Source of the DNA: a virus | Taxonomy: Duplodnaviria > Caudoviricetes | Length of the DNA stretch: 64,000 nucleotides | IMG/VR virus record: IMGVR_UViG_3300005937_000010 | Span: 8,089-72,088 of that record | Direction: 5' to 3' (one strand) | In this document: one piece after another, positions 17,006-28,643 of the stretch | How the letters are laid out: each line of letters opens with the position of its first letter | Numbering within the stretch: position 1 is the stretch's first letter | Notes under the pieces: generated by a model | What the model was told of the DNA's origin: nothing | Database searches by the model: none | Seen by the model: the letters and a program-made list of their open reading frames with translations, nothing else | Position numbers and translations under genes: made by a program

Positions 17006-17188
17006 TCAGGGCAAGATCCCGATTGCAGGACGTTTGCGAACTTCCACGTCCATCAGGATCGGAAGCTCGTAGCGGCAGCCCTTTACTTGGCAGTTGTTCC
17101 AGACGTAGACGACATACTCGTCGTCCTTCGTCCAGACCTCGTGGTACGTCTCCCACTTGTGGATGCCAAGCCTACACCGAATCCTCAT
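17006..17188 (-). CDS. Small Cys/His protein (CRLGIHKW type)
   Basis: CRLGIHKW...CQVKGC pattern. Confidence 0.5.
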   Translation of the reverse strand: MRIRCRLGIHKWETYHEVWTKDDEYVVYVWNNCQVKGCRYELPILMDVEVRKRPAIGILP

Positions 17189-17411
17189 CGTCGTCCTCGT
17201 CCTCAAAGTTAGCGATGCAGTCCGCCTTCTGCGTCGTCGCCGCAAGCTCCAGAAGCGCGTATGCCTCCCAGGTGAGAAGCGTCTCCGTCGTGCGAATGCA
17301 GAAACAGGGCACGCCATCCTCGTCCAAGCACTTGATGACGGCGACCGCATCCAACGGCGTCCACCCCGGTGGCAAGTCCTTCGTGCTCGTCTTCAATCCA
17401 AAGATGCTCAT
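17172..17411 (-). CDS. Hypothetical protein, probably leaderless
   Basis: TAGAAT at 17418-17423 lies 6 nt before the ATG; no SD. Confidence 0.55.
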   Translation of the reverse strand: MSIFGLKTSTKDLPPGWTPLDAVAVIKCLDEDGVPCFCIRTTETLLTWEAYALLELAATTQKADCIANFEDEDDDEDSV

Positions 17412-17419
17412 GGCGCGAT

Positions 17420-17760
17420 TCTAAGCGCTTCCGAGCCGTCGGGCGCAACTTCCCTGCATCTGAGGCCAGGTGGCCCAAAAGAGAGCACAGAAGGGCATAG
17501 GAGAGCCTCAGTGCCGCTTTGGGCTACCAAGCTGCTGATTTCCCTGCAAATCACCATTTTCAGGCAGCTTGGTACCCCTGAACCGCTTTTCTACCCAAAA
17601 ACTTGTCACTTTGAGGCGTTTCCGGGTGGCCAATCCGCCCCCGCGGCCTCCCCCCTTCGGCGTCGTCAAACTTGGCACTTTCCGATAACGGAGGCTAATG
17701 CGCTGCCTGCCAAGCTGCTTATAGGTTGCGCGCGCAAGTATCGTCTTGGCAGGCAACGTC
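17420..17760. other. Divergent non-coding region, candidate genome end/packaging site
   Basis: AT-richer gap between divergent genes, abrupt compositional break, palindrome TTGCGCGCGCAA at 17726-17737. Confidence 0.35.
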
Positions 17761-18297
17761 CGAGGCTGGCTGCCCTGCCGTCCTGCCAAGCCGCTCCGGC
17801 TGCCCTGCCTGCCTGCCACACGAGGCCGCTGCGCCCGGTGCGGTGGAGGCAGGACGGCAGGACGGAGGCTGCGCACACGGCTGCGGTGGCACCGTCCTCG
17901 TGGTGTCCTGGAGGCCACCCGTGCGGAGCGGCACTGGCTGCCTCCGTACGCTCCGGCTCGTGCCACGGATGCCACCGCTCCGGAGCGGATGCGGCGTGGC
18001 GTCCTGGAGGCAGCCGCTATCTCCAGGCAGTGCCTCCGTGGTGGAGCCTGCCAGTGCCAAGCGGAGGCCATGGACGGAGCCGCTCCGTGCCTGGCGCTCC
18101 ACCGTGTGCGGATGCCAAGCCGGAGGCCGTCCGCTCGCGCGTACGCGGAGGACGCTGCCTGCCAAGACACGAAAAGTCCGCAAATAGCGGCTTTTTTCTA
18201 AGCTCGCGGAGTGCCTGCCAAGCCGCATCCTGCCTGGAGCCGTCTACTCTGTCCGTGCGGCCACGAGGCCGCACCACCCGAACCGATTGGAGACACC

Positions 18298-21200
18298 ATG
18301 TCGCACGAGCCTTACACCACCACCACGAGCCAGCGCGTCTACGCCAGCATGACGGAGCGCCGCGAGCGGTACGCCAGCCTGGAGCGGCTGCCGTCCACGC
18401 CGGACACCACGTGGAACGTGGCGCGCTGCCAGGACACGCACTGCCACGTCCTCTACGTGTGGCCTCGCGGCCTCGCCAGCCTGGAGGACGGAGCCACGCT
18501 CCGGTGCGTCCGCTGCGGCGCTCCGCTGGCGCGGACTACCCGCGAGGCACGCGGAGCCTGGAGCCTCTACCCGCTGGAGGACTTGGCAGCCGCGTACGGC
18601 CGTGCCCTGGAGCGCCAGGACGCCGCTGCGGCCTCGGACGCGGAGTACCTCGCGGCGCTGGAGGCCAGCGGCACCACGAGCGCGGACGGACTGGCGTACG
18701 CCAGGCAACTGCGGACGGAGACTCGCGCCACGATGCGCAAGCCGCTGGAGGCCAAGCTCCGCAAGCTCCGCAAGGCAATGGCTGCGGAGGCTGCCAAGCT
18801 CGCGGAGGCCGCTGCCGTCCGCGAGGCCGTGGACGCGGAGACGGACGCGGAGTACGTGGCCATGGCCTCCACGATGCGGCTGCCGCAGCCGGAGGCCACG
18901 GAGCCGGAGCACCACACGGACGCGGAGCCTGCCACGCCAGCGCAAGCCGTTCTACTGGCTGCCCTGGAGGCTGGCACTGCCAAGCTCGTGCCGTCCACGG
19001 AGGCCGTGGAGGCTGCGAAGGCTGCCGCTGCGGAGACGGCTGCCAAGCTCCGCGCGGAGCACGAGGCCGCGAGGACGGAGCGCGTCCACGCCTCGGATGC
19101 CTACCGCGCGTCCAGGACGCCGGAGGACGATGCCAAGACACTGGAGCGCGTCCAGGCTGCGGACTACGCGCTGCGGCAGACACGCGCTGCCCTGGAGGCC
19201 GCTGGCGTCCTGCCGCAGCCGCGCGTCCACACGTACGCCAGCACGTCCGAGGCGTACAACCGCAGCCAGTGCGACGATGCCGTACAGGACGGAGACGTGC
19301 TCCGCGTGCCGTCCGAGGACGCTGCGGCCGTCATGGTGTCCGCGTGGCCAACCGCTGCCACGGAGGCCACCGCTGGCGAGGCTTTCCACGTGCTCGCGGA
19401 TGGCGAGGACTGGAGCGCGCTGCCTGCCGTCCTGGACGGAGGCCGCACGGACTACGCGGAGTCCGCTGCCGTCATGGCTGCGGAGCTTGCGGAGGACGCC
19501 ACGCTGCGGACGCTGGCTGCGGACTTGGCAGCCAAGCCGCTGGAGGCCAGCGCGCTCGTGGCTCCGGAGGACGTGCCTACGCTGGCTGCCAAGCTCGTGC
19601 CTGGCGTGCTCGTGGAGCACGTGGAGTCCGGAGCGCGTGGCACGGTGGCAGGCACGCCAGCGCCGCAGCGGAGCGCTGGCAATGCGCTCTATGTCCGCGT
19701 CCGCTGGCAGCACGAGTATGCGCGCGAGGCTGGCGCGCTCGTGGCCATCCGGAGGCTCCGCATCGTGGAGGACGGCTCCAGCACTGCCAAGCTCGTGGAG
19801 CCGCAGCCGGAGGCTCCGCAGCCGGAGGCCGTAGAGTCCGTCCGCGTCTACGCGGAGGCTGCGGAGCGCCGCGAGGCACGCGCGGCCGTCTACGGCACGG
19901 AGGCCACGGAGGACGTGCTGCCGCTCGCGCATGCCATGGCTGCGGCGTGGAGCCATGCTGGAGGCCAGCCGGAGGACATGCCATCGGACGCCGGAGCCGT
20001 GCTCCGCGCGCTGGACGCGCGCATGCTGGAGACGGCTGGACGGCTGCGGTACGCGCGCATGGCCACCGCTCGCGGAAACTTGGCAGCGTCCATGGACGCG
20101 CTGGAGGCCGCTCTAGCCTCCGCTCGCGCGTCCGAGGCTGGCAGCCTGGACGAGTCCTCGGAGGCCGTCACGGAGCCGCACACGGCCTCGGAGGCCATGC
20201 CAGCGCCAGGCTTGTCCGGACTTGGCTGGACGGAGCTTGCGGACGGAGACGAGGACGCGGAGCGCTGCCGTGGCTGCGGCTGCCGCGCGGACTGGCACGA
20301 TGCCATGGACGGAGCGTGTCCGGAGGACACGGAGGCTCCGCATCCGTACAGCATGGCAGCGGATGCCCTGGAGGACGAGGACACGCCGGAGGCCGTGGAG
20401 ACTGCCAAGCTCCACGCGCTGGCAGCCGCAGCCGTGGAGGCCACGGACTGGAGCATGTCCGCGCTGGAGGACGTGTCCGCGCTCGTGCTGGACTACCGCG
20501 AGGCCACCGCTGCCGCGTACGGAGCGGATGCGCGCGAGGCTGCCAAGCGGACGCGCGAGGCCATCCGGCACGCGCTGGCAGACATGGACGGAGCCACGTA
20601 CGCGCTCGTGCCGGACGCCACGCTGCGGCTGGCTGGCATGCCCTACGTGGAGCGCCAGTGCTCCGGCACGGAGGACGGCTGGCTGTACTACGTGCTCCAG
20701 GACGCGGAGCGCGTGGAGGACGCCGGAGGCTGGACGGACGCGGAGCCTGCCTGGCTGGAGGCTGCGGACTTGGCACGGCTGGCCATGCTGGACGATGCGG
20801 AGCGCCACGCGGTGGACGCGCTGCGCAGTGCCATGCAAGGCAGCGCGGAGGACGCATACGGCCTCGCCATCCTCGTGCTGGAGCCGTCCGGCTGGCACGT
20901 CCTGGAGTACCGCGAGGCCACGGCCTCGGACGGCTGGACGCCGGAGCGGATGCGCACGAGCGCACTCGTGGAATACGCGGAGCACGCTGCCAAGCTCGTG
21001 GACGTGGACGGCCTCGTGTGGACGCTGGCAGGCTCCGAGGACGTGCCAGCGCGCTCCGCTGCCCTGGCCACCGTGGACGCGCTGGAGGCCACCGCTGCCA
21101 AGCTCGCGGACTGCGAGGCCGTGTGCCAGCGGCTCCGCGTGGAGCTTGCGGACATGGCCAGCCGGACGCTGCCGGACTTCCGGAGCGCGGACGGCTCCGC

Positions 21201-21444
21201 GCTCGTGTGCCTGCCTGGCGCAGTGCTGCCGGACGGCCGTGGCTCCGTGGTGGTGGCTGCCAGCGCGTCCAGCGCGCACGTATGGCACGTCCTGGCCATG
21301 CGTCCAGGCTGGCACGCTGCGGACACGTACTACGTGGCCACGTACGCGCGGCCGTCCTCGTGTGACACGCCGCAGCGCACGGCTTGGCATGACACGCTCG
21401 CGGCTGCGCTGGCAGACTACGCCAGCCGGACGGAGGCCGTCTAA
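18298..21444 (+). CDS. Large multidomain early protein (1048 aa), polyvalent-protein-like
   Basis: ATG at 18298 after CCCGAAC...GGAG; globular motifs (STSEAYNRSQCDDAVQDGDVL; WHVLAMRPG...YYVATY) joined by Ala/Glu linkers. Confidence 0.75.
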   Translation: MSHEPYTTTTSQRVYASMTERRERYASLERLPSTPDTTWNVARCQDTHCHVLYVWPRGLASLEDGATLRCVRCGAPLARTTREARGAWSLYPLEDLAAAYGRALERQDAAAASDAEYLAALEASGTTSADGLAYARQLRTETRATMRKPLEAKLRKLRKAMAAEAAKLAEAAAVREAVDAETDAEYVAMASTMRLPQPEATEPEHHTDAEPATPAQAVLLAALEAGTAKLVPSTEAVEAAKAAAAETAAKLRAEHEAARTERVHASDAYRASRTPEDDAKTLERVQAADYALRQTRAALEAAGVLPQPRVHTYASTSEAYNRSQCDDAVQDGDVLRVPSEDAAAVMVSAWPTAATEATAGEAFHVLADGEDWSALPAVLDGGRTDYAESAAVMAAELAEDATLRTLAADLAAKPLEASALVAPEDVPTLAAKLVPGVLVEHVESGARGTVAGTPAPQRSAGNALYVRVRWQHEYAREAGALVAIRRLRIVEDGSSTAKLVEPQPEAPQPEAVESVRVYAEAAERREARAAVYGTEATEDVLPLAHAMAAAWSHAGGQPEDMPSDAGAVLRALDARMLETAGRLRYARMATARGNLAASMDALEAALASARASEAGSLDESSEAVTEPHTASEAMPAPGLSGLGWTELADGDEDAERCRGCGCRADWHDAMDGACPEDTEAPHPYSMAADALEDEDTPEAVETAKLHALAAAAVEATDWSMSALEDVSALVLDYREATAAAYGADAREAAKRTREAIRHALADMDGATYALVPDATLRLAGMPYVERQCSGTEDGWLYYVLQDAERVEDAGGWTDAEPAWLEAADLARLAMLDDAERHAVDALRSAMQGSAEDAYGLAILVLEPSGWHVLEYREATASDGWTPERMRTSALVEYAEHAAKLVDVDGLVWTLAGSEDVPARSAALATVDALEATAAKLADCEAVCQRLRVELADMASRTLPDFRSADGSALVCLPGAVLPDGRGSVVVAASASSAHVWHVLAMRPGWHAADTYYVATYARPSSCDTPQRTAWHDTLAAALADYASRTEAV

Positions 21445-21596
21445 TGGCTGCCCTGGCTTGCGGCTTCGCTGCCGCTGCCATGGCCATGGCGTGCCTGGCC
21501 GCGAGCATGGACGCCACGAGCCAGCTAGTGGCGCTCGTGCTGGCCATGCTCTACCTGGCGTGCTCCGTGCTCGCAGCCTGGAGCACGCGGCACTAG
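21444..21596 (+). CDS. 50-aa hydrophobic membrane peptide
   Basis: TAATG overlap; MAALACGFAAAAMAMACLAASMDATSQLVALVLAMLYLACSVLAAWSTRH. Confidence 0.45.
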   Translation: MAALACGFAAAAMAMACLAASMDATSQLVALVLAMLYLACSVLAAWSTRH

Positions 21597-22010
21597 CTGC
21601 CAAGCTCCGCGCGCAAGCTCGCGCGCTCCACGCTCTACCTGGACGGCCTCCACGCGGAGGCCGTCCGTGCGTCCGAGGCCGTGTGCGGCCTCGTGTGCCG
21701 CTGCCAAGCTCTAGGCAAGGCAAGCGGCCAGGCTCGTGCTGGCGTGGCCGCACGGAGCCAGCCACGGCCTCGCAGCGGCATGCCAGCCGGACGGCCTCCA
21801 CCGTGCTGCGGCCTCCGGCGTCCAGGACGGCCGCAAGCTCGCGGACGCCGGACGCGCTGTAAGGCTCCAGGACGGCCGCTCGCGCGAGGCCATGCCAGGG
21901 CATGCCTGGCAGCCTCGGAGGCCGCGAGACGGCCGCACACGGCCTCGCAGCGGCGTGCTCGTGCCCTGGACGCTGGCACGTCCTGGCACGCGGCCTCGTG
22001 TCAAATAGAT

Positions 22011-22034
22011 GGACGGCCGCTCGCGCGGCCGTCC
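22011..22034 (-). terminator. GNRA-loop hairpin between convergent genes
   Basis: GGACGGCCGC-TCGC-GCGGCCGTCC, perfect 10-bp stem. Confidence 0.6.
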
Positions 22035-22062
22035 AGGTAGTGCGTCTATGTCCGGCTGCGGA

Positions 22063-23016
22063 CTACAGCCGGAGGCCGTACGGCCGCAGTACCTCGCGGA
22101 TGGCCTCCGCGAGCTTGTCTGCCTCCAGGTACGTGCCGTCCGTGTCCTGGCTGCGGAGCATGGTGCGGATGGCTCCGATGGCCTCCGCGTATCCGTAGCC
22201 ACGGACGGCCTCGCACCACGAGGCCAGCGCGTCAAGCTCGCGGCGTGCTGCCTGGCGCTCCGCGAGCGGTAGCCTGGAGCGCGCTGCCGGATAGCCAGGC
22301 TTGGCATTGTTTCGGATGCGCTCCGGCACGTCCAGCGCGCGGCGCTCCAGCCGTGCGCTCCAGGCTGCGGATTCGGACACGTAGCCAGTGCTGGCCAGCG
22401 CGTACAGCGTGGAGTCCTGGCCACCATGCCAAGCCGCTGCGGAGGCCATAGCGTCCGCTGGCGTATAGACGTGGCTGGAGCACACTACCTCGCCTCCGTC
22501 CAGGCATAGCCAGCCGTCCGCGTAGACGGCAGCGCCGCACACGTCGCACGAGCTTGGCATGCCGTCCTCCGGCTCCGATACAAGCTCCGTCCAGTGCGCT
22601 CCGCTGCCATCCGTGCCGGACTTGCGGCCGTAGCCTCCGTCCATGTCCACGAGGTAAACGTCTACGCGCTGGCGCTCGTGCTCGCGGACTGCCTGGAATG
22701 CGTCCACGAGCCTGGAGTCTAGTGCCAAGCTCCAGTGCTCGCACCATGTCTCCAGCACGTCCGGAGCGCCACCGTGGAGCTTGCCTCCGTCCGCACGAGT
22801 GAATAGGACGGACGCCACATGCTCGCGCAGCGCGTCCTCCACGTACTGGAGGCCGTCCGTAGTCAAGTCCTCATCTAGCAGGACGCCACATTCGTCGCAG
22901 TGTGATGGCGAGTCCGTCTCGCCTCCGATGGTAGGACTGGCGTCCTCCGGAGCGCAGTCCTCGCACCATAGGCAGGCAGCCTCCGGAGCGTAGTACGGAG
23001 TCCGTGCGTCCATCAC
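22063..23016 (-). CDS. Early protein with Cys motifs
   Basis: CEDC, ETDSPSHCDECG, CDVCG motifs; GGAGG RBS. Confidence 0.65.
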   Translation of the reverse strand: MMDARTPYYAPEAACLWCEDCAPEDASPTIGGETDSPSHCDECGVLLDEDLTTDGLQYVEDALREHVASVLFTRADGGKLHGGAPDVLETWCEHWSLALDSRLVDAFQAVREHERQRVDVYLVDMDGGYGRKSGTDGSGAHWTELVSEPEDGMPSSCDVCGAAVYADGWLCLDGGEVVCSSHVYTPADAMASAAAWHGGQDSTLYALASTGYVSESAAWSARLERRALDVPERIRNNAKPGYPAARSRLPLAERQAARRELDALASWCEAVRGYGYAEAIGAIRTMLRSQDTDGTYLEADKLAEAIREVLRPYGLRL

Positions 23017-23960
23017 GCTACCTCCGTCCGCACGAGCTTGGCACGAGCGGCCACGGCCTCGGACACTGCCTCGGACACGAGTCCGTAGTCTGACACGATG
23101 GCGTCTAGCTGGCGCTCCACGGACTCCGCACGGCTGGACGTGTCAAGCTCGCAGCCTCCGATAGAGGACGTGCCAAGCTCCACGCCAGCCGCGTACGCGG
23201 TGGCCACCACGTAGACGGCCTCGCGGCCGTGGATGGCAGTCCGCAAGTCCGCAGCCACGTACTGCCGCGCGAGGCAGTCTGCCTCGTGCCTGGCGTAGCC
23301 AAGCTTGCGGAGGCCAGCCACGTGCTCGCGGTACGGCATGTCCGGCACAAAGTAGGCATACGTGCCACGCTCGCGCGGCTCCGGCAGTGCCACCGCATCC
23401 GGCGTCCAGCCGTTTTGAAACTTGCCACGAGTCCAGTAGTCCGGATCGTAGTCCGCACGAGCCACCACGGAGACGGAGTAGCCACGCTCCACGAGCTTGG
23501 CAGTCCAGCCGTAGCCGTCCTCCGTCCAGTCCAGTGCCGGAGCCGGAGCCTGGCTGGCGTAGTGCCAAGCCGTGGACGCCGGATACCGCTCGTGCTCCGT
23601 GCGAAGCTTGCGGTACCGCTCGCGGCGTGCCTCGTGCTCCGCAGCCTTGCGCTCCAACCGCAGCCGCTTGCGCTCCGCGCGCTGCCAAGCCTGGACTTGT
23701 GCCAGCGTCCACGCGGACGGCTCCAGCACGAGGCTGCCAGAATCGTCCAGCCGGACGCTGCCGATTGCCTCGCCACCGTAGCCAGCACTGCCGCGCGTGG
23801 CCACGAGCCGGACGGCATCGCTGCCGTCCGCGTCCACGTGTGCCGTGGCCTCCGTGCCTACGTGCCAGCCACGGACGTGGCAGGTTACTCCGCTCCAGGC
23901 AGTACCGCAGCGCGTGGCCTCGCCACGGCTGCCCTGGAGACTGCCGTAAAAGTGTGACAT
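23013..23960 (-). CDS. Early hypothetical protein
   Basis: MSHFYGSLQGSRGEATRCG phage-type N-terminus; GGAGG RBS. Confidence 0.7.
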   Translation of the reverse strand: MSHFYGSLQGSRGEATRCGTAWSGVTCHVRGWHVGTEATAHVDADGSDAVRLVATRGSAGYGGEAIGSVRLDDSGSLVLEPSAWTLAQVQAWQRAERKRLRLERKAAEHEARRERYRKLRTEHERYPASTAWHYASQAPAPALDWTEDGYGWTAKLVERGYSVSVVARADYDPDYWTRGKFQNGWTPDAVALPEPRERGTYAYFVPDMPYREHVAGLRKLGYARHEADCLARQYVAADLRTAIHGREAVYVVATAYAAGVELGTSSIGGCELDTSSRAESVERQLDAIVSDYGLVSEAVSEAVAARAKLVRTEVA

Positions 23961-24140
23961 GTCCTCTACCTCCAGTCCTTTTCAAGTCTTGGCATGGAGC
24001 CAGCCGGACGCCGGATAGGCTCCGTGCTGGCGTCAAGCTCGCGGCCGTGGCGTACGTGGAGCGCCACGCTCGTGCGTGCTGGCTTGGCAGCCAGCGCCGC
24101 GCGTAGTGCGTCCTCGCGCGTGGCGTAGACGGCAGCCACG

Positions 24141-24344
24141 CTAGACACGGACGGACTCCGGCAGCACGATGGCTCGTGCTGCCTCCGCTGCCGCGTAGAG
24201 CTTGGCAGCCATCGGACTCGTGGTGTCCTCGGACGCGCGCAGCGTGTCCTCCACGAGCCATACAGTGCGGAGCCGTCCAGTCCGGACGGACTCCACGCGC
24301 TGGCGCTCCGTGGCGCTGGCGCTGGACTTGCGATTACTTGGCAT
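24141..24344 (-). CDS. Early hypothetical protein
   Basis: MPSNRKSS; CCCGAAC plus GGAGG leader. Confidence 0.55.
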   Translation of the reverse strand: MPSNRKSSASATERQRVESVRTGRLRTVWLVEDTLRASEDTTSPMAAKLYAAAEAARAIVLPESVRV

Positions 24345-24783
24345 GTCTGCCTCCGTAGGTTCGGGTGGAGCCTCGCAAGCCGCGAGGCACTGCCAAGATA
24401 GCACACGGCTGCGGCTGTCTGCCAAGTCCTCGCGCGAGGCTGCCTGCCAAGCTCGTGCTACGCTCGCAGCCTTGCCAGCTAGACGGAGGTAGACATGCCA
24501 GGACGGTAGTCCGCTGGACATAGACGGAGCACGCCACACGAGCACGGCCGCGAGGCCGTGCGGCTTGGCATGCTCGCGGACTGCCTGGCGCGCTGGCGTG
24601 CCTGGCTGCCTCCGGCTGCCTCCAGGACGGCCGCTCCGGCGTGCCTCCAGGACGGAGGACGGACGGCCGCTCCGAGGACGTGGAGCGGCCGTCCAGCGCC
24701 GCGCGCTCCGAGGACGTGGAGCGCCGCAGCGGCGTGCTCGCGGCTGCCATGCCACGAGCCGCGAGCGGTAGCCAGCCTACCAA

Positions 24784-24829
24784 GTTAGTGGCCACTAACA
24801 TGTGACAAGCCGCCCGAAGGCGGCTTGTC
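24784..24829. terminator. 16-bp perfect palindrome followed by UUCG-loop hairpin
   Basis: GTTAGTGGCCACTAAC; GACAAGCCGCC-CGAA-GGCGGCTTGTC. Confidence 0.55.
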
Positions 24830-27701: not shown

Positions 27702-28643
27702 CTAGCGCCGTGCCTTGGCAGCGGCCTTGCCCTTACCCTTGACCGCTGTCGCCCGCGTCCGCGTGGCCGGAGCCTTGCGCGAGGCCGCAGGCTTGCCCTT
27801 CGGAGCCGCTGTGCGGGCCTGTGCGGGCTTGCGAGTCGCAGGGGCAGCCTTGCCCCTGGCCGGAGCGGGCTTGGCCGCAGCGGGCTTCACAGCGCGCCGC
27901 GTACGCGTCGTCTTCGGCCGGACGGCCGCGCGAGCCTCGCGCCTGCGGATGTCGTTCGGCTTGGTGCTCGTGCCGTACGCTGCCCGCTCGCCCGACTCGT
28001 GCTGGCCGGTGGCCTTCACGAAGTCCAGGGCCACGCGCCCGATGAGCCAGATGACCATGCGGTCGGCCGCGTGCTTGTCCTTGTCCGGGTACCAGCGCGT
28101 GGCGTGCCGCTTGACCTCCGCGAAGACCTTGGCCTTGTCACCCCGGTGCTTGCGCAGGCTGTCCATGACGATTCCGCGCTTGCTCGCGGAGCCGCCTTTC
28201 CAGTCCGCCGTCCAGTCGATGGCGCTGTTGTCGATGCGCACCGCGTAGCCTTCCGCCGCCTGGCCGCGCGTGCTCGTGCGCTTGGCAGCCGGAGCCGCCT
28301 TCGGAGCCGCCTTGCGCGCGACCGGCTTCGTCGTGGTGGCCTTGCCCTTGCCCTTCGCGGGCGCGACCGTGCGCGTGGTGGGCTTGGCAGCGGGCTTCGC
28401 CGGAACGGCCTTGCCCTTCGCCGGAGCGGCGGGCTTGCCCTTGACGACGGTCGTGGCTGCCGCCTTGCCCTTCGCTCCGTTGCGCCCGTTGGCGCTCGTG
28501 GCAGTCTTGCCCTTCGCGGGCTTGCTCGTGCGCGTCTGTGCCTGCTCCACGAGCTTGCGCAGCGTGGCGGGCGGGATCTTGCGGTAGTCCTCGATTCCCG
28601 CCTGCTTGGCCTTGGCCCACAGCGTAATCATGTCCTTGTCCAT
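27702..28643 (-). CDS. Histone-H1-like basic DNA-binding protein
   Basis: AKP/KGK-rich arms flank a ~100-aa globular core; short helical N-terminal domain; GGAGG RBS. Confidence 0.75.
   Translation of the reverse strand: MDKDMITLWAKAKQAGIEDYRKIPPATLRKLVEQAQTRTSKPAKGKTATSANGRNGAKGKAAATTVVKGKPAAPAKGKAVPAKPAAKPTTRTVAPAKGKGKATTTKPVARKAAPKAAPAAKRTSTRGQAAEGYAVRIDNSAIDWTADWKGGSASKRGIVMDSLRKHRGDKAKVFAEVKRHATRWYPDKDKHAADRMVIWLIGRVALDFVKATGQHESGERAAYGTSTKPNDIRRREARAAVRPKTTRTRRAVKPAAAKPAPARGKAAPATRKPAQARTAAPKGKPAASRKAPATRTRATAVKGKGKAAAKARR

Follow-up and report, generated by a model that had tools for sequence, protein, structure and literature searches.

A sharply bounded 7-kb island in a soil phage genome is purged of short DNA words, possibly as an adaptation of first-entering DNA to host defences

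Why is one 7-kb block of a phage genome nearly free of short DNA words that abound in the rest of it, and what has removed them? The block in question, referred to as the island in the following, occupies positions 17756-24800 (7,045 bp) of a 64,000-nucleotide stretch that corresponds to bases 8089-72088 of the single 72,088-bp contig of a metagenomic soil phage (IMG/VR record IMGVR_UViG_3300005937_000010). This whole analysed stretch is called the window here, and all coordinates are window positions unless stated otherwise. A sequence-only reading of the window had noticed the unusual vocabulary of the region and had proposed that it is the leading end of the genome, purged of many host restriction-type sites because it enters the cell first. 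In the present analysis the purge itself stands out clearly at the level of the DNA, while its cause has to be weighed against several alternatives.

As a measure of the purge we used five reverse-complement trinucleotide pairs, CCC/GGG, TCA/TGA, AAC/GTT, GAA/TTC and GAT/ATC, which are termed forbidden words here. The first four are present in the island at only 0.10-0.11 of their density outside and GAT/ATC at 0.21; altogether 126 copies are found, compared to about 1050 expected from the base composition of the island, whose GC (guanine plus cytosine) content is 71% vs 61.5% elsewhere. The depletion is equal on both strands, and double-stranded DNA is therefore the level at which it acts. 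GATC occurs once in the island (at 23444) and 493 times in the rest of the genome, and TCGA, GGTC and GACC, with 7.6, 5.2 and 5.9 copies per kb in the remainder of the genome, are completely absent from 17756-24800, as are GGGA/TCCC, CCCA/TGGG and CCCC/GGGG. Further specific absences are exposed when the expectation is conditioned on shorter words, namely those of TGCA (1 observed vs 35 expected), CGAC/GTCG (4 vs 67), AGGAG/CTCCT (0 vs 32) and CCGCC/GGCGG (0 vs 29). The depletion is discrete and not diffuse, with a few words at or near zero and others at expectation. Per kb, 98 of the 136 tetranucleotide classes are used inside the island, compared to 124 outside and 127 ± 3 in random DNA of island composition; the most enriched tetranucleotides include GGAG, GGAC, CTGG and CACG. 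These counts bear out the sequence-only reading, which had reported a single GATC at about 23443, no TCGA or GGTC/GACC, a scarcity of AAC/GTT, TTC/GAA and G/C runs, a dominance of the four tetranucleotides just named, and a bias that covers both strands as well as non-coding DNA.

The limits of the island are equally distinct. In 200-bp intervals the forbidden words number at most 9 everywhere inside and at least 11 everywhere outside, where 23-35 are typical, and both edges are abrupt within about 20 bp, at ~17756 and at 24784-24800. The bias had been said to fade after 24.8 kb; this holds insofar as a mild shoulder of depletion continues inward from 24800 to about 28.6 kb (83-113 forbidden words per kb vs 142, with few GATC), but the edge itself is a step and not a gradient. 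Part of the shoulder lies within an Ala/Pro/Lys-rich gene for a protein of 313 amino acids (aa; 27702-28643).

To separate the words from the proteins that they encode, two null models were used, in which either the protein was kept and the usual codons of the phage were drawn, or the gene's own synonymous codons were permuted. For the gene of a 1048-aa protein, the largest of the island, 44 forbidden trinucleotides are observed, compared to 230 ± 15 under the first model and 144 ± 9 under the second, so that the depletion persists after correction for amino acids; for those forbidden words which span a codon junction the values are 24 vs 124 ± 9. Genes for a 316-aa and a 315-aa protein give a like result under both corrections. 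Non-coding island DNA (four stretches, 1.6 kb) contains 17.7 forbidden words per kb vs 138 outside. It is thus near certain that we are dealing with a selective purge at the DNA level, which does not act via codons or amino acids.

The proteins have nevertheless changed, as had been claimed. Phe, Ile, Asn and Lys account for 0.4, 0.8, 0.4 and 1.6% of residues in the island proteins vs 3.3, 4.8, 3.7 and 4.7% elsewhere in the phage (sum 2.5-4.8% vs 16.5%), and Ala is doubled. In comparison with less purged orthologues, Ile, Lys, Asn and Phe are mostly replaced in the window by Val/Leu, Arg, Asp/Ser/Thr and Leu/Tyr, respectively. The 1048-aa protein, singled out earlier as poor in Ile, Phe and Asn and as having its Lys mostly within TGCCAAG, contains 0.4% Ile, 0.2% Phe and 0.4% Asn, and 10 of its 16 Lys codons lie inside TGCC-AAG. 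Among the codons ACC, GTC, CCC, ATC, TTC and AAC are lost, and GGA (24% vs 11%), GCT (20% vs 14%), CTA, GTA and ACT are raised. Rare A/T-ending codons thus go up while common C-ending ones are gone, which argues against GC content or codon optimisation as the cause.

What the purge has left in place is informative as well. TGCCAAG/CTTGGCA, the motif said to be kept, is present in 347 copies genome-wide, 39 of them in the island, and is at 5.5 per kb indeed no rarer there than elsewhere (4.9), whereas its TGA-containing variant TGACAAG has 0 copies in the island and 93 elsewhere. All 10 sense copies in the 1048-aa gene lie in one frame (x-Ala-Lys). A second element, CCCGAA(A/C)C, is placed directly ahead of the ribosome-binding site (RBS) of nine non-structural genes, at 18277 on the plus strand and at 24365, 25132, 25727, 26931, 28669, 31814, 36787 and 16935 on the minus strand. 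Both transcription units of the island, which are opposed to each other as in T5 (plus strand, 18298-21596; minus strand, 24344-22063), begin with a CCCGAAC leader; the element survives although it is made of forbidden words, and of the forbidden words that remain in the island, few as they are, several belong to these two leaders. The purge spares only functional elements, that is, the CCCGAAC leaders, TGCCAAG and start and stop signals. From its position and the shared leader element, the island module would be an early one.

The same module is found at the same place in metagenomic relatives, where it comprises a DUF932 gene, small genes, two genes for proteins of about 310 aa and a large gene on the opposite strand. 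The strength of the purge is graded, being the same as in the window in the closest relative (L014), intermediate in L008 and weaker in L011 and L033. Moreover, the word lists differ. The L011 and L033 islands are purged of CCC/GGG (3.5 vs 22.5 per kb) and of ACC/GGT but hardly of A/T-containing words, whereas the L008 island is purged of AAC, GAA, TCA and GAT but only partly of CCC, and is rich in AGGAG and CAGCT; the islands of the window and L014 carry both purge sets, to which AGGAG and CAGCT are added. Such a mosaic of lineage-specific lists is predicted by changing selective agents; it would not be expected if the block were foreign, or if one mutational bias or a shared physical requirement had shaped it. 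As judged from these comparisons, the purge is old and graded among relatives, and the block is native to the phage and no recent foreign acquisition. No island was seen in the DNA examined of more distant, terminase-linked relatives (L001-L007, L015-L024) and of locus L032.

The location of the island in the genome bears directly on the proposed order of entry. The first and last 123 bases of the contig are identical, so that the record represents a circularised assembly of 71,965 bp with arbitrary ends. Two Joint Genome Institute (JGI) contigs of one relative, which originate from two samples (L011, 66.7 kb; L012, 10.3 kb), stop at the same base within CCGCG^GGGGC. This element is conserved in all four phages and lies in the window on the minus strand at 17637-17646, with the break at 17641/17642, 115 bp outside the island. 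Two contigs that end at one base within a conserved element suggest that the island probably abuts a fixed genome end, and a terminal position is the assignment that we favour with reasonable confidence. A pattern search for the element in viral contigs gave no match. The 2.9 kb on the terminase side of the putative terminus are at baseline with 142 forbidden words per kb, the purge being confined to the island side. If the terminus is real, the island makes up the last 7.2 kb (10%) of the genome, at the end remote from the terminase genes, and its large gene is read inward. The gpA-type terminase of this phage agrees with defined ends, since cutting at a fixed site is a property of the lambda gpA family. 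In lambda and L5-type phages the corresponding end is packaged last and ejected first; by this analogy, the island end is most likely packaged last and would be the first to enter the cell.

The island is, moreover, embedded in a genome which itself avoids restriction sites. Outside of it (65 kb), the genome contains no or almost no copies of about 26 six-base palindromes, compared to 10-70 copies expected of each. Examples (observed/expected) are GCCGGC (2/72), CGATCG (0/65), GGCGCC (0/50), GACGTC (0/36), GAGCTC (0/34), CACGTG (1/30), CCGCGG (1/29), CAGCTG (0/28), GTCGAC (0/28), CTCGAG (0/24), CTGCAG (0/20) and CCCGGG (0/19); TGATCA, AGGCCT and AGATCT are likewise absent or nearly absent, and others, e.g. 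CGGCCG, CGTACG and TGCGCA, occur as often as expected. Which palindromes are avoided varies between the lineages of the window, L008 and L033, with island and flanks in agreement within each lineage. To judge from these sequences, the hexamer signature is one of textbook-strength Type II avoidance, and restriction avoidance has demonstrably been among the major forces acting on this phage family; site avoidance is thus already a general strategy of these phages.

Taken together, avoidance of defences on first-entering DNA, as at the leading ends of T5 and T7, appears to be the best explanation of the island, to which we assign a probability of about one half. The island would hereby represent a self-contained early module at one end of a phage genome whose ends are fixed, and selection would strip this module of the short words needed by sequence-specific DNA-targeting defences. 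As in T7 and T5 there would be two tiers. Ordinary Type II targets would be removed genome-wide, while the DNA that is exposed in the cell ahead of all phage protein synthesis would also be cleared of four-base sites (GATC, TCGA, TGCA) and of short asymmetric half-sites of Type I, Type III and BREX-like (bacteriophage exclusion) systems, at the price that Ile, Phe, Asn and Lys are replaced conservatively. The proteins encoded by the module, i.e. the acidic multidomain 1048-aa protein, a membrane peptide and the 316-, 315- and 67-aa proteins, may then protect the remaining genome or let it in. In line with this explanation, the island is delimited sharply by a terminator at one edge and by terminus-proximal DNA at the other. 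Depletion of protospacer-adjacent motifs (PAMs) of CRISPR (clustered regularly interspaced short palindromic repeats) systems was considered as the sole cause and is unlikely, as residual PAM-like words and the 39 TGCCAAG copies remain; words with zero counts also fit the threshold selection typical of restriction better than PAM depletion. Several observations weigh against avoidance on first-entering DNA. The purged list, with five trinucleotide classes, is unusually broad for conventional restriction targets. CACGTG and TCCGGA, found 1/30 and 5/24 times (observed/expected) outside, are tolerated inside (5/10 and 12/14), so that the island does not simply extend the purge seen genome-wide; such sites might re-accumulate faster where the words that compose them are very frequent. 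If the island products gave T5-like protection, the hexamer avoidance in the rest of the genome would be unnecessary, and no island protein resembles a known anti-restriction protein or T5 A1 or A2 in Pfam and PHROGs or, for models of the 316- and 315-aa proteins, in fold searches. As to the terminus, the assemblies of the window, L008 and L033 read through the element (the genome of the window with a 123-bp end overlap), and since contigs are also broken elsewhere, in the GC-rich convergent spacer, the shared contig end may be an assembly artefact. Apart from these points, the L014 island is without CACGTG.

A further-reaching form of the explanation, which we put forward tentatively and regard as doubtful, is an actinophage lineage with T5-like staged entry whose first-entering 7 kb would have been rewritten to about 100 of the 136 tetranucleotide classes, the purged list being a fossil record of the short-motif defences (Type I, Type III, BREX-like or novel) met by each lineage; or else the breadth of the list might point to a defence or a phage nuclease with a recognition sequence shorter than any described. 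The main rival of host-defence avoidance is self-avoidance. Here an early nuclease of the phage, possibly encoded in the island, would cut host DNA at short words of very high frequency at a time when no more than the island has entered the cell, and the island itself would have to lack them. The purged words (GATC, TCGA, GTCG/CGAC, GACC/GGTC, ATC, TTC, AAC, CCC) are in fact the commonest ones in the remainder of the genome and, by inference, in a high-GC host, diverging specificities of the nuclease would give lineage-specific lists, and Davison has already proposed the same for T5, whose first-step DNA would be without sites of the phage's own A1 nuclease (bioRxiv 10.1101/866236). However, no nuclease domain was detected in any island protein, nucleases that degrade host DNA are usually less sequence-specific, and the purged words abound in the remaining phage genome, which would need separate protection or delayed entry; we therefore consider self-avoidance unlikely.

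The remaining explanations do without a nuclease. The island might be host-like in GC content and cleared of A/T-rich steps for immediate use by the host RNA polymerase, for escape from an AT-seeking silencer such as Lsr2, or through codon adaptation. This would account for its raised GC content and for the reduction of AA/TT and AT to 0.29 and 0.44 of their outside densities, and the leading regions of plasmids are GC-rich and codon-adapted while not consistently motif-depleted (PMC13478746). It leaves unexplained, however, the loss of CCC/GGG, GACC/GGTC, CGAC/GTCG, TCGA, TGCA, CCGCC and AGGAG, the retention or even enrichment of CTA/TAG, GTA/TAC and ATA, and the rise of rare A/T-ending codons. 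Furthermore, a purge that includes codon junctions and non-coding DNA is not codon adaptation, and L011 and L033 lose G/C words but keep most A/T words, which makes this explanation very unlikely. A neutral or physical cause, i.e. a local mutational bias (e.g. transcription- or repair-associated) or a mechanical demand on the last-packaged DNA, would agree with the sharp match to transcription-unit and terminus limits and with the fast divergence of the large protein among relatives. We judge it to be very improbable too, considering that the depletion is strand-symmetric, that discrete words with zero counts are listed differently by lineage, that functional elements with forbidden words are retained, and that the mixture of G/C-only and A/T-containing words fits no single known mutational spectrum. 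Finally, the abrupt step in GC content and word usage, together with a word-indexed search which gave no homologue of the 1048-aa protein, could indicate a foreign island or repeat-derived filler with the normal composition of its donor. Yet the module is syntenic in all close relatives with a graded purge, homologues of the protein were found by direct comparison and exhaustive HMMER searches, and in its TGCCAAG density, its CCCGAAC leaders and its avoidance of hexamers the island matches the rest of the phage. Recent acquisition is thereby contradicted, and a foreign origin is scarcely credible. Besides, we know of no organism which has the composition of the island genome-wide.

Starting from the putative terminus, the conserved element is followed by unpurged terminus-proximal DNA (17647-17755; 105 forbidden words per kb), which is conserved in an alignment of four phages and holds GGAAAGTGCCAAGTTTGACG. 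The purged non-coding leader of the plus-strand unit (17756-18297; 542 bp, 71% GC, 27.7 forbidden words per kb) carries the CCCGAAC element at 18277 and then an RBS. The gene of the 1048-aa protein (18298-21444, plus strand), the only large gene of the phage on that strand, is read inward from the putative end and overlaps via TAATG with a gene for a hydrophobic 50-aa peptide (21444-21596, plus strand), the latter being assigned by reading and translation of the sequence. A purged convergent intergenic region with hairpins (21597-22062; 9.7 forbidden words per kb) contains the minus-strand terminator at 22035-22010. The minus-strand unit comprises the genes of the Cys/His-rich 316-aa protein (22063-23013; homologues P0013-P0020, alignment A2), of the 315-aa protein (23013-23960), within which the sole GATC is located, and, as the first gene of the unit, of a basic 67-aa protein (24141-24344) with the leader element at 24365. 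Upstream of it lies a second purged non-coding leader (24345-24783, minus strand; 439 bp, 9.1 forbidden words per kb) with direct repeats and a candidate promoter, TTGGCA-N19-TATCTT, from 24425. Its -35 element is TTGGCA and not the TGA-containing TTGACA; a strict sigma-70 promoter scan found no promoter in the island. The inner edge (24784-24827) is formed by a perfect 16-bp palindrome, GTTAGTGGCCACTAAC (24784-24799), and a terminator-like hairpin (24806-24827), which closes the upstream operon; the island starts directly past hairpin and palindrome. The hairpin and AGTGGCCACTAAC, which is the core of the window palindrome GTTAGTGGCCACTAAC, are likewise found at the island edge of L008 (~8300). 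As to its role, the palindrome could serve as an operator, mark the boundary of a repeat or be a site at which entry pauses.

Since TGA and TAA are purged, the length of an open reading frame (ORF) is no evidence of coding in the island. Non-coding frames stay open for 400-1400 codons, as exemplified by a 1402-codon ORF in another frame (17157-21365, plus strand), and gene callers probably over-call in purged DNA, e.g. with a 240-aa call in the purged leader of L008 (L008:14916-15638). The coding frame of the large gene was thus selected by GC content by codon position (0.76/0.56/0.86) and by homology. That the 1048-aa protein is real follows from the syntenic opposite-strand genes for homologues of 1020-1030 aa in L008, L011 and L033. 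It carries a net charge of -72 and shows 45% identity to the L008 protein over the last 400 residues and 50% identity to the L011 protein over residues 308-397. An exhaustive HMMER search yielded 388 remote relatives, most of them matching a domain of about 90 aa (residues 305-400) which often stands alone; the assignment of the protein as an orphan, based on the word-indexed search, is therefore wrong. The protein is built as a chain of small modules found elsewhere as separate proteins (residues 305-400, 626-705, 784-915 and 935-1045). Hundreds of relatives exist of the first of these, with lengths of 90-130 aa in many cases, and one relative of the 784-914 module is fused to a domain like the C-terminal domain (CTD) of the RNA polymerase alpha subunit. 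A language-model atlas gave nothing usable for the 1048-aa protein.

For all island proteins, Pfam and PHROGs returned no family of known function and no homologue of the T5 pre-early proteins A1, A2 or dmp. The 315-aa protein matches phrog_5927 and phrog_5644, whose function is unassigned. Fold searches with the models of the 316-aa protein (pLDDT, predicted local distance difference test, 77) and of the 315-aa protein (pLDDT 74) gave background-level matches only, with a best Z of 7.4 for the latter. Matches of the 316-aa family to PDB profiles of TALE repeats were rejected as repeat-summed noise, as no single stretch passes alone.

Nearly all genes of the phage are on the minus strand. The phage has a tailed-phage gene set (gpA-type large terminase, portal, baseplate and tail genes) and genes for a DnaE-type polymerase, a DnaB-like helicase, a UvsX-like recombinase, a Cas4-like exonuclease and an HU-like protein. 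Neither tRNA genes in the window nor an Rfam RNA family in the island region were found. Megablast of the island region against GenBank phages gave no match, and with a best identity of 24% for the terminase there is no close GenBank phage. Homologues of the DUF932 protein and of one domain of the 1048-aa protein fall almost exclusively in phages of Streptomyces, Microbacterium, Mycobacterium, Arthrobacter and Gordonia, which suggests that the host is likely an actinobacterium.

The principle of site avoidance in first-entering DNA is already established; new here are the size and nature of the purge, the way in which it alters the make-up of the proteins, the fact that the phage belongs to an unrelated group, and the availability of a series of relatives. 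We found no described case of segment-confined site avoidance as extreme as this one, with whole trinucleotide classes lost and protein composition reshaped. The graded and differently purged relatives provide a natural series for the evolution of such a purge. A purge of this type may offer a sequence-only marker of exposed, first-entering phage DNA and a read-out of those short motifs which matter to defences in poorly studied soil hosts. If staged entry is true, both the first-injected DNA and the defence specificities of the host could be inferred from sequence alone. The conserved, presumably early island proteins are obvious candidates for anti-defence or DNA-entry roles.

How does the island compare with known systems? 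Against T5-like phages, Type I, II and III systems as well as CRISPR and Ssp are effective only through targets within the first-step-transfer region (PMC10644984, PMC5389539), CRISPR stopping T5 only through pre-early targets (PMC5389539), and this region consists of two oppositely oriented units with a long non-coding border (PMC10644984). The island resembles the first-step-transfer DNA of T5 and BF23 in being a block of about 8-10% of the genome at a terminal position, which is probable here, and in its two opposed transcription units and long non-coding inner border with repeats and palindromes. It differs in that it has no homology to A1, A2 or dmp; a long direct terminal repeat that contains the block and a two-step injection with a pause are features of the T5 region. 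While the T5 region is without particular 6-bp or bipartite sites, the island is without whole classes of 3-5-letter words and has an altered amino-acid make-up, and the rest of this genome, unlike that of T5, still avoids hexamer palindromes. In the T7-like Murciavirus, sensitivity to Type I systems is set by motifs in the first-injected region only (PMC12455610), and this region, whose motif content decides on restriction, is highly variable between relatives, a likeness to the island. However, one or a few motifs are absent there, compared to a wholesale purge of the vocabulary here, and Murciavirus is unrelated to the present phage, which is probably actinobacterial and has a baseplate and a DnaE-type polymerase. 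The leading regions of conjugative plasmids are first-entering, GC-rich and the seat of anti-defence genes (PMC11541004, PMC13478746); they are codon-adapted and not consistently motif-depleted (PMC13478746), whereas the island combines extreme depletion with a codon usage that departs from the usual optimum. Avoidance of Type II palindromic sites throughout the genome, as known from phages (PMC6286503), is matched by the missing hexamers with their lineage-specific sets; in addition, the island shows a regional purge of shorter words, most of which are not palindromes.

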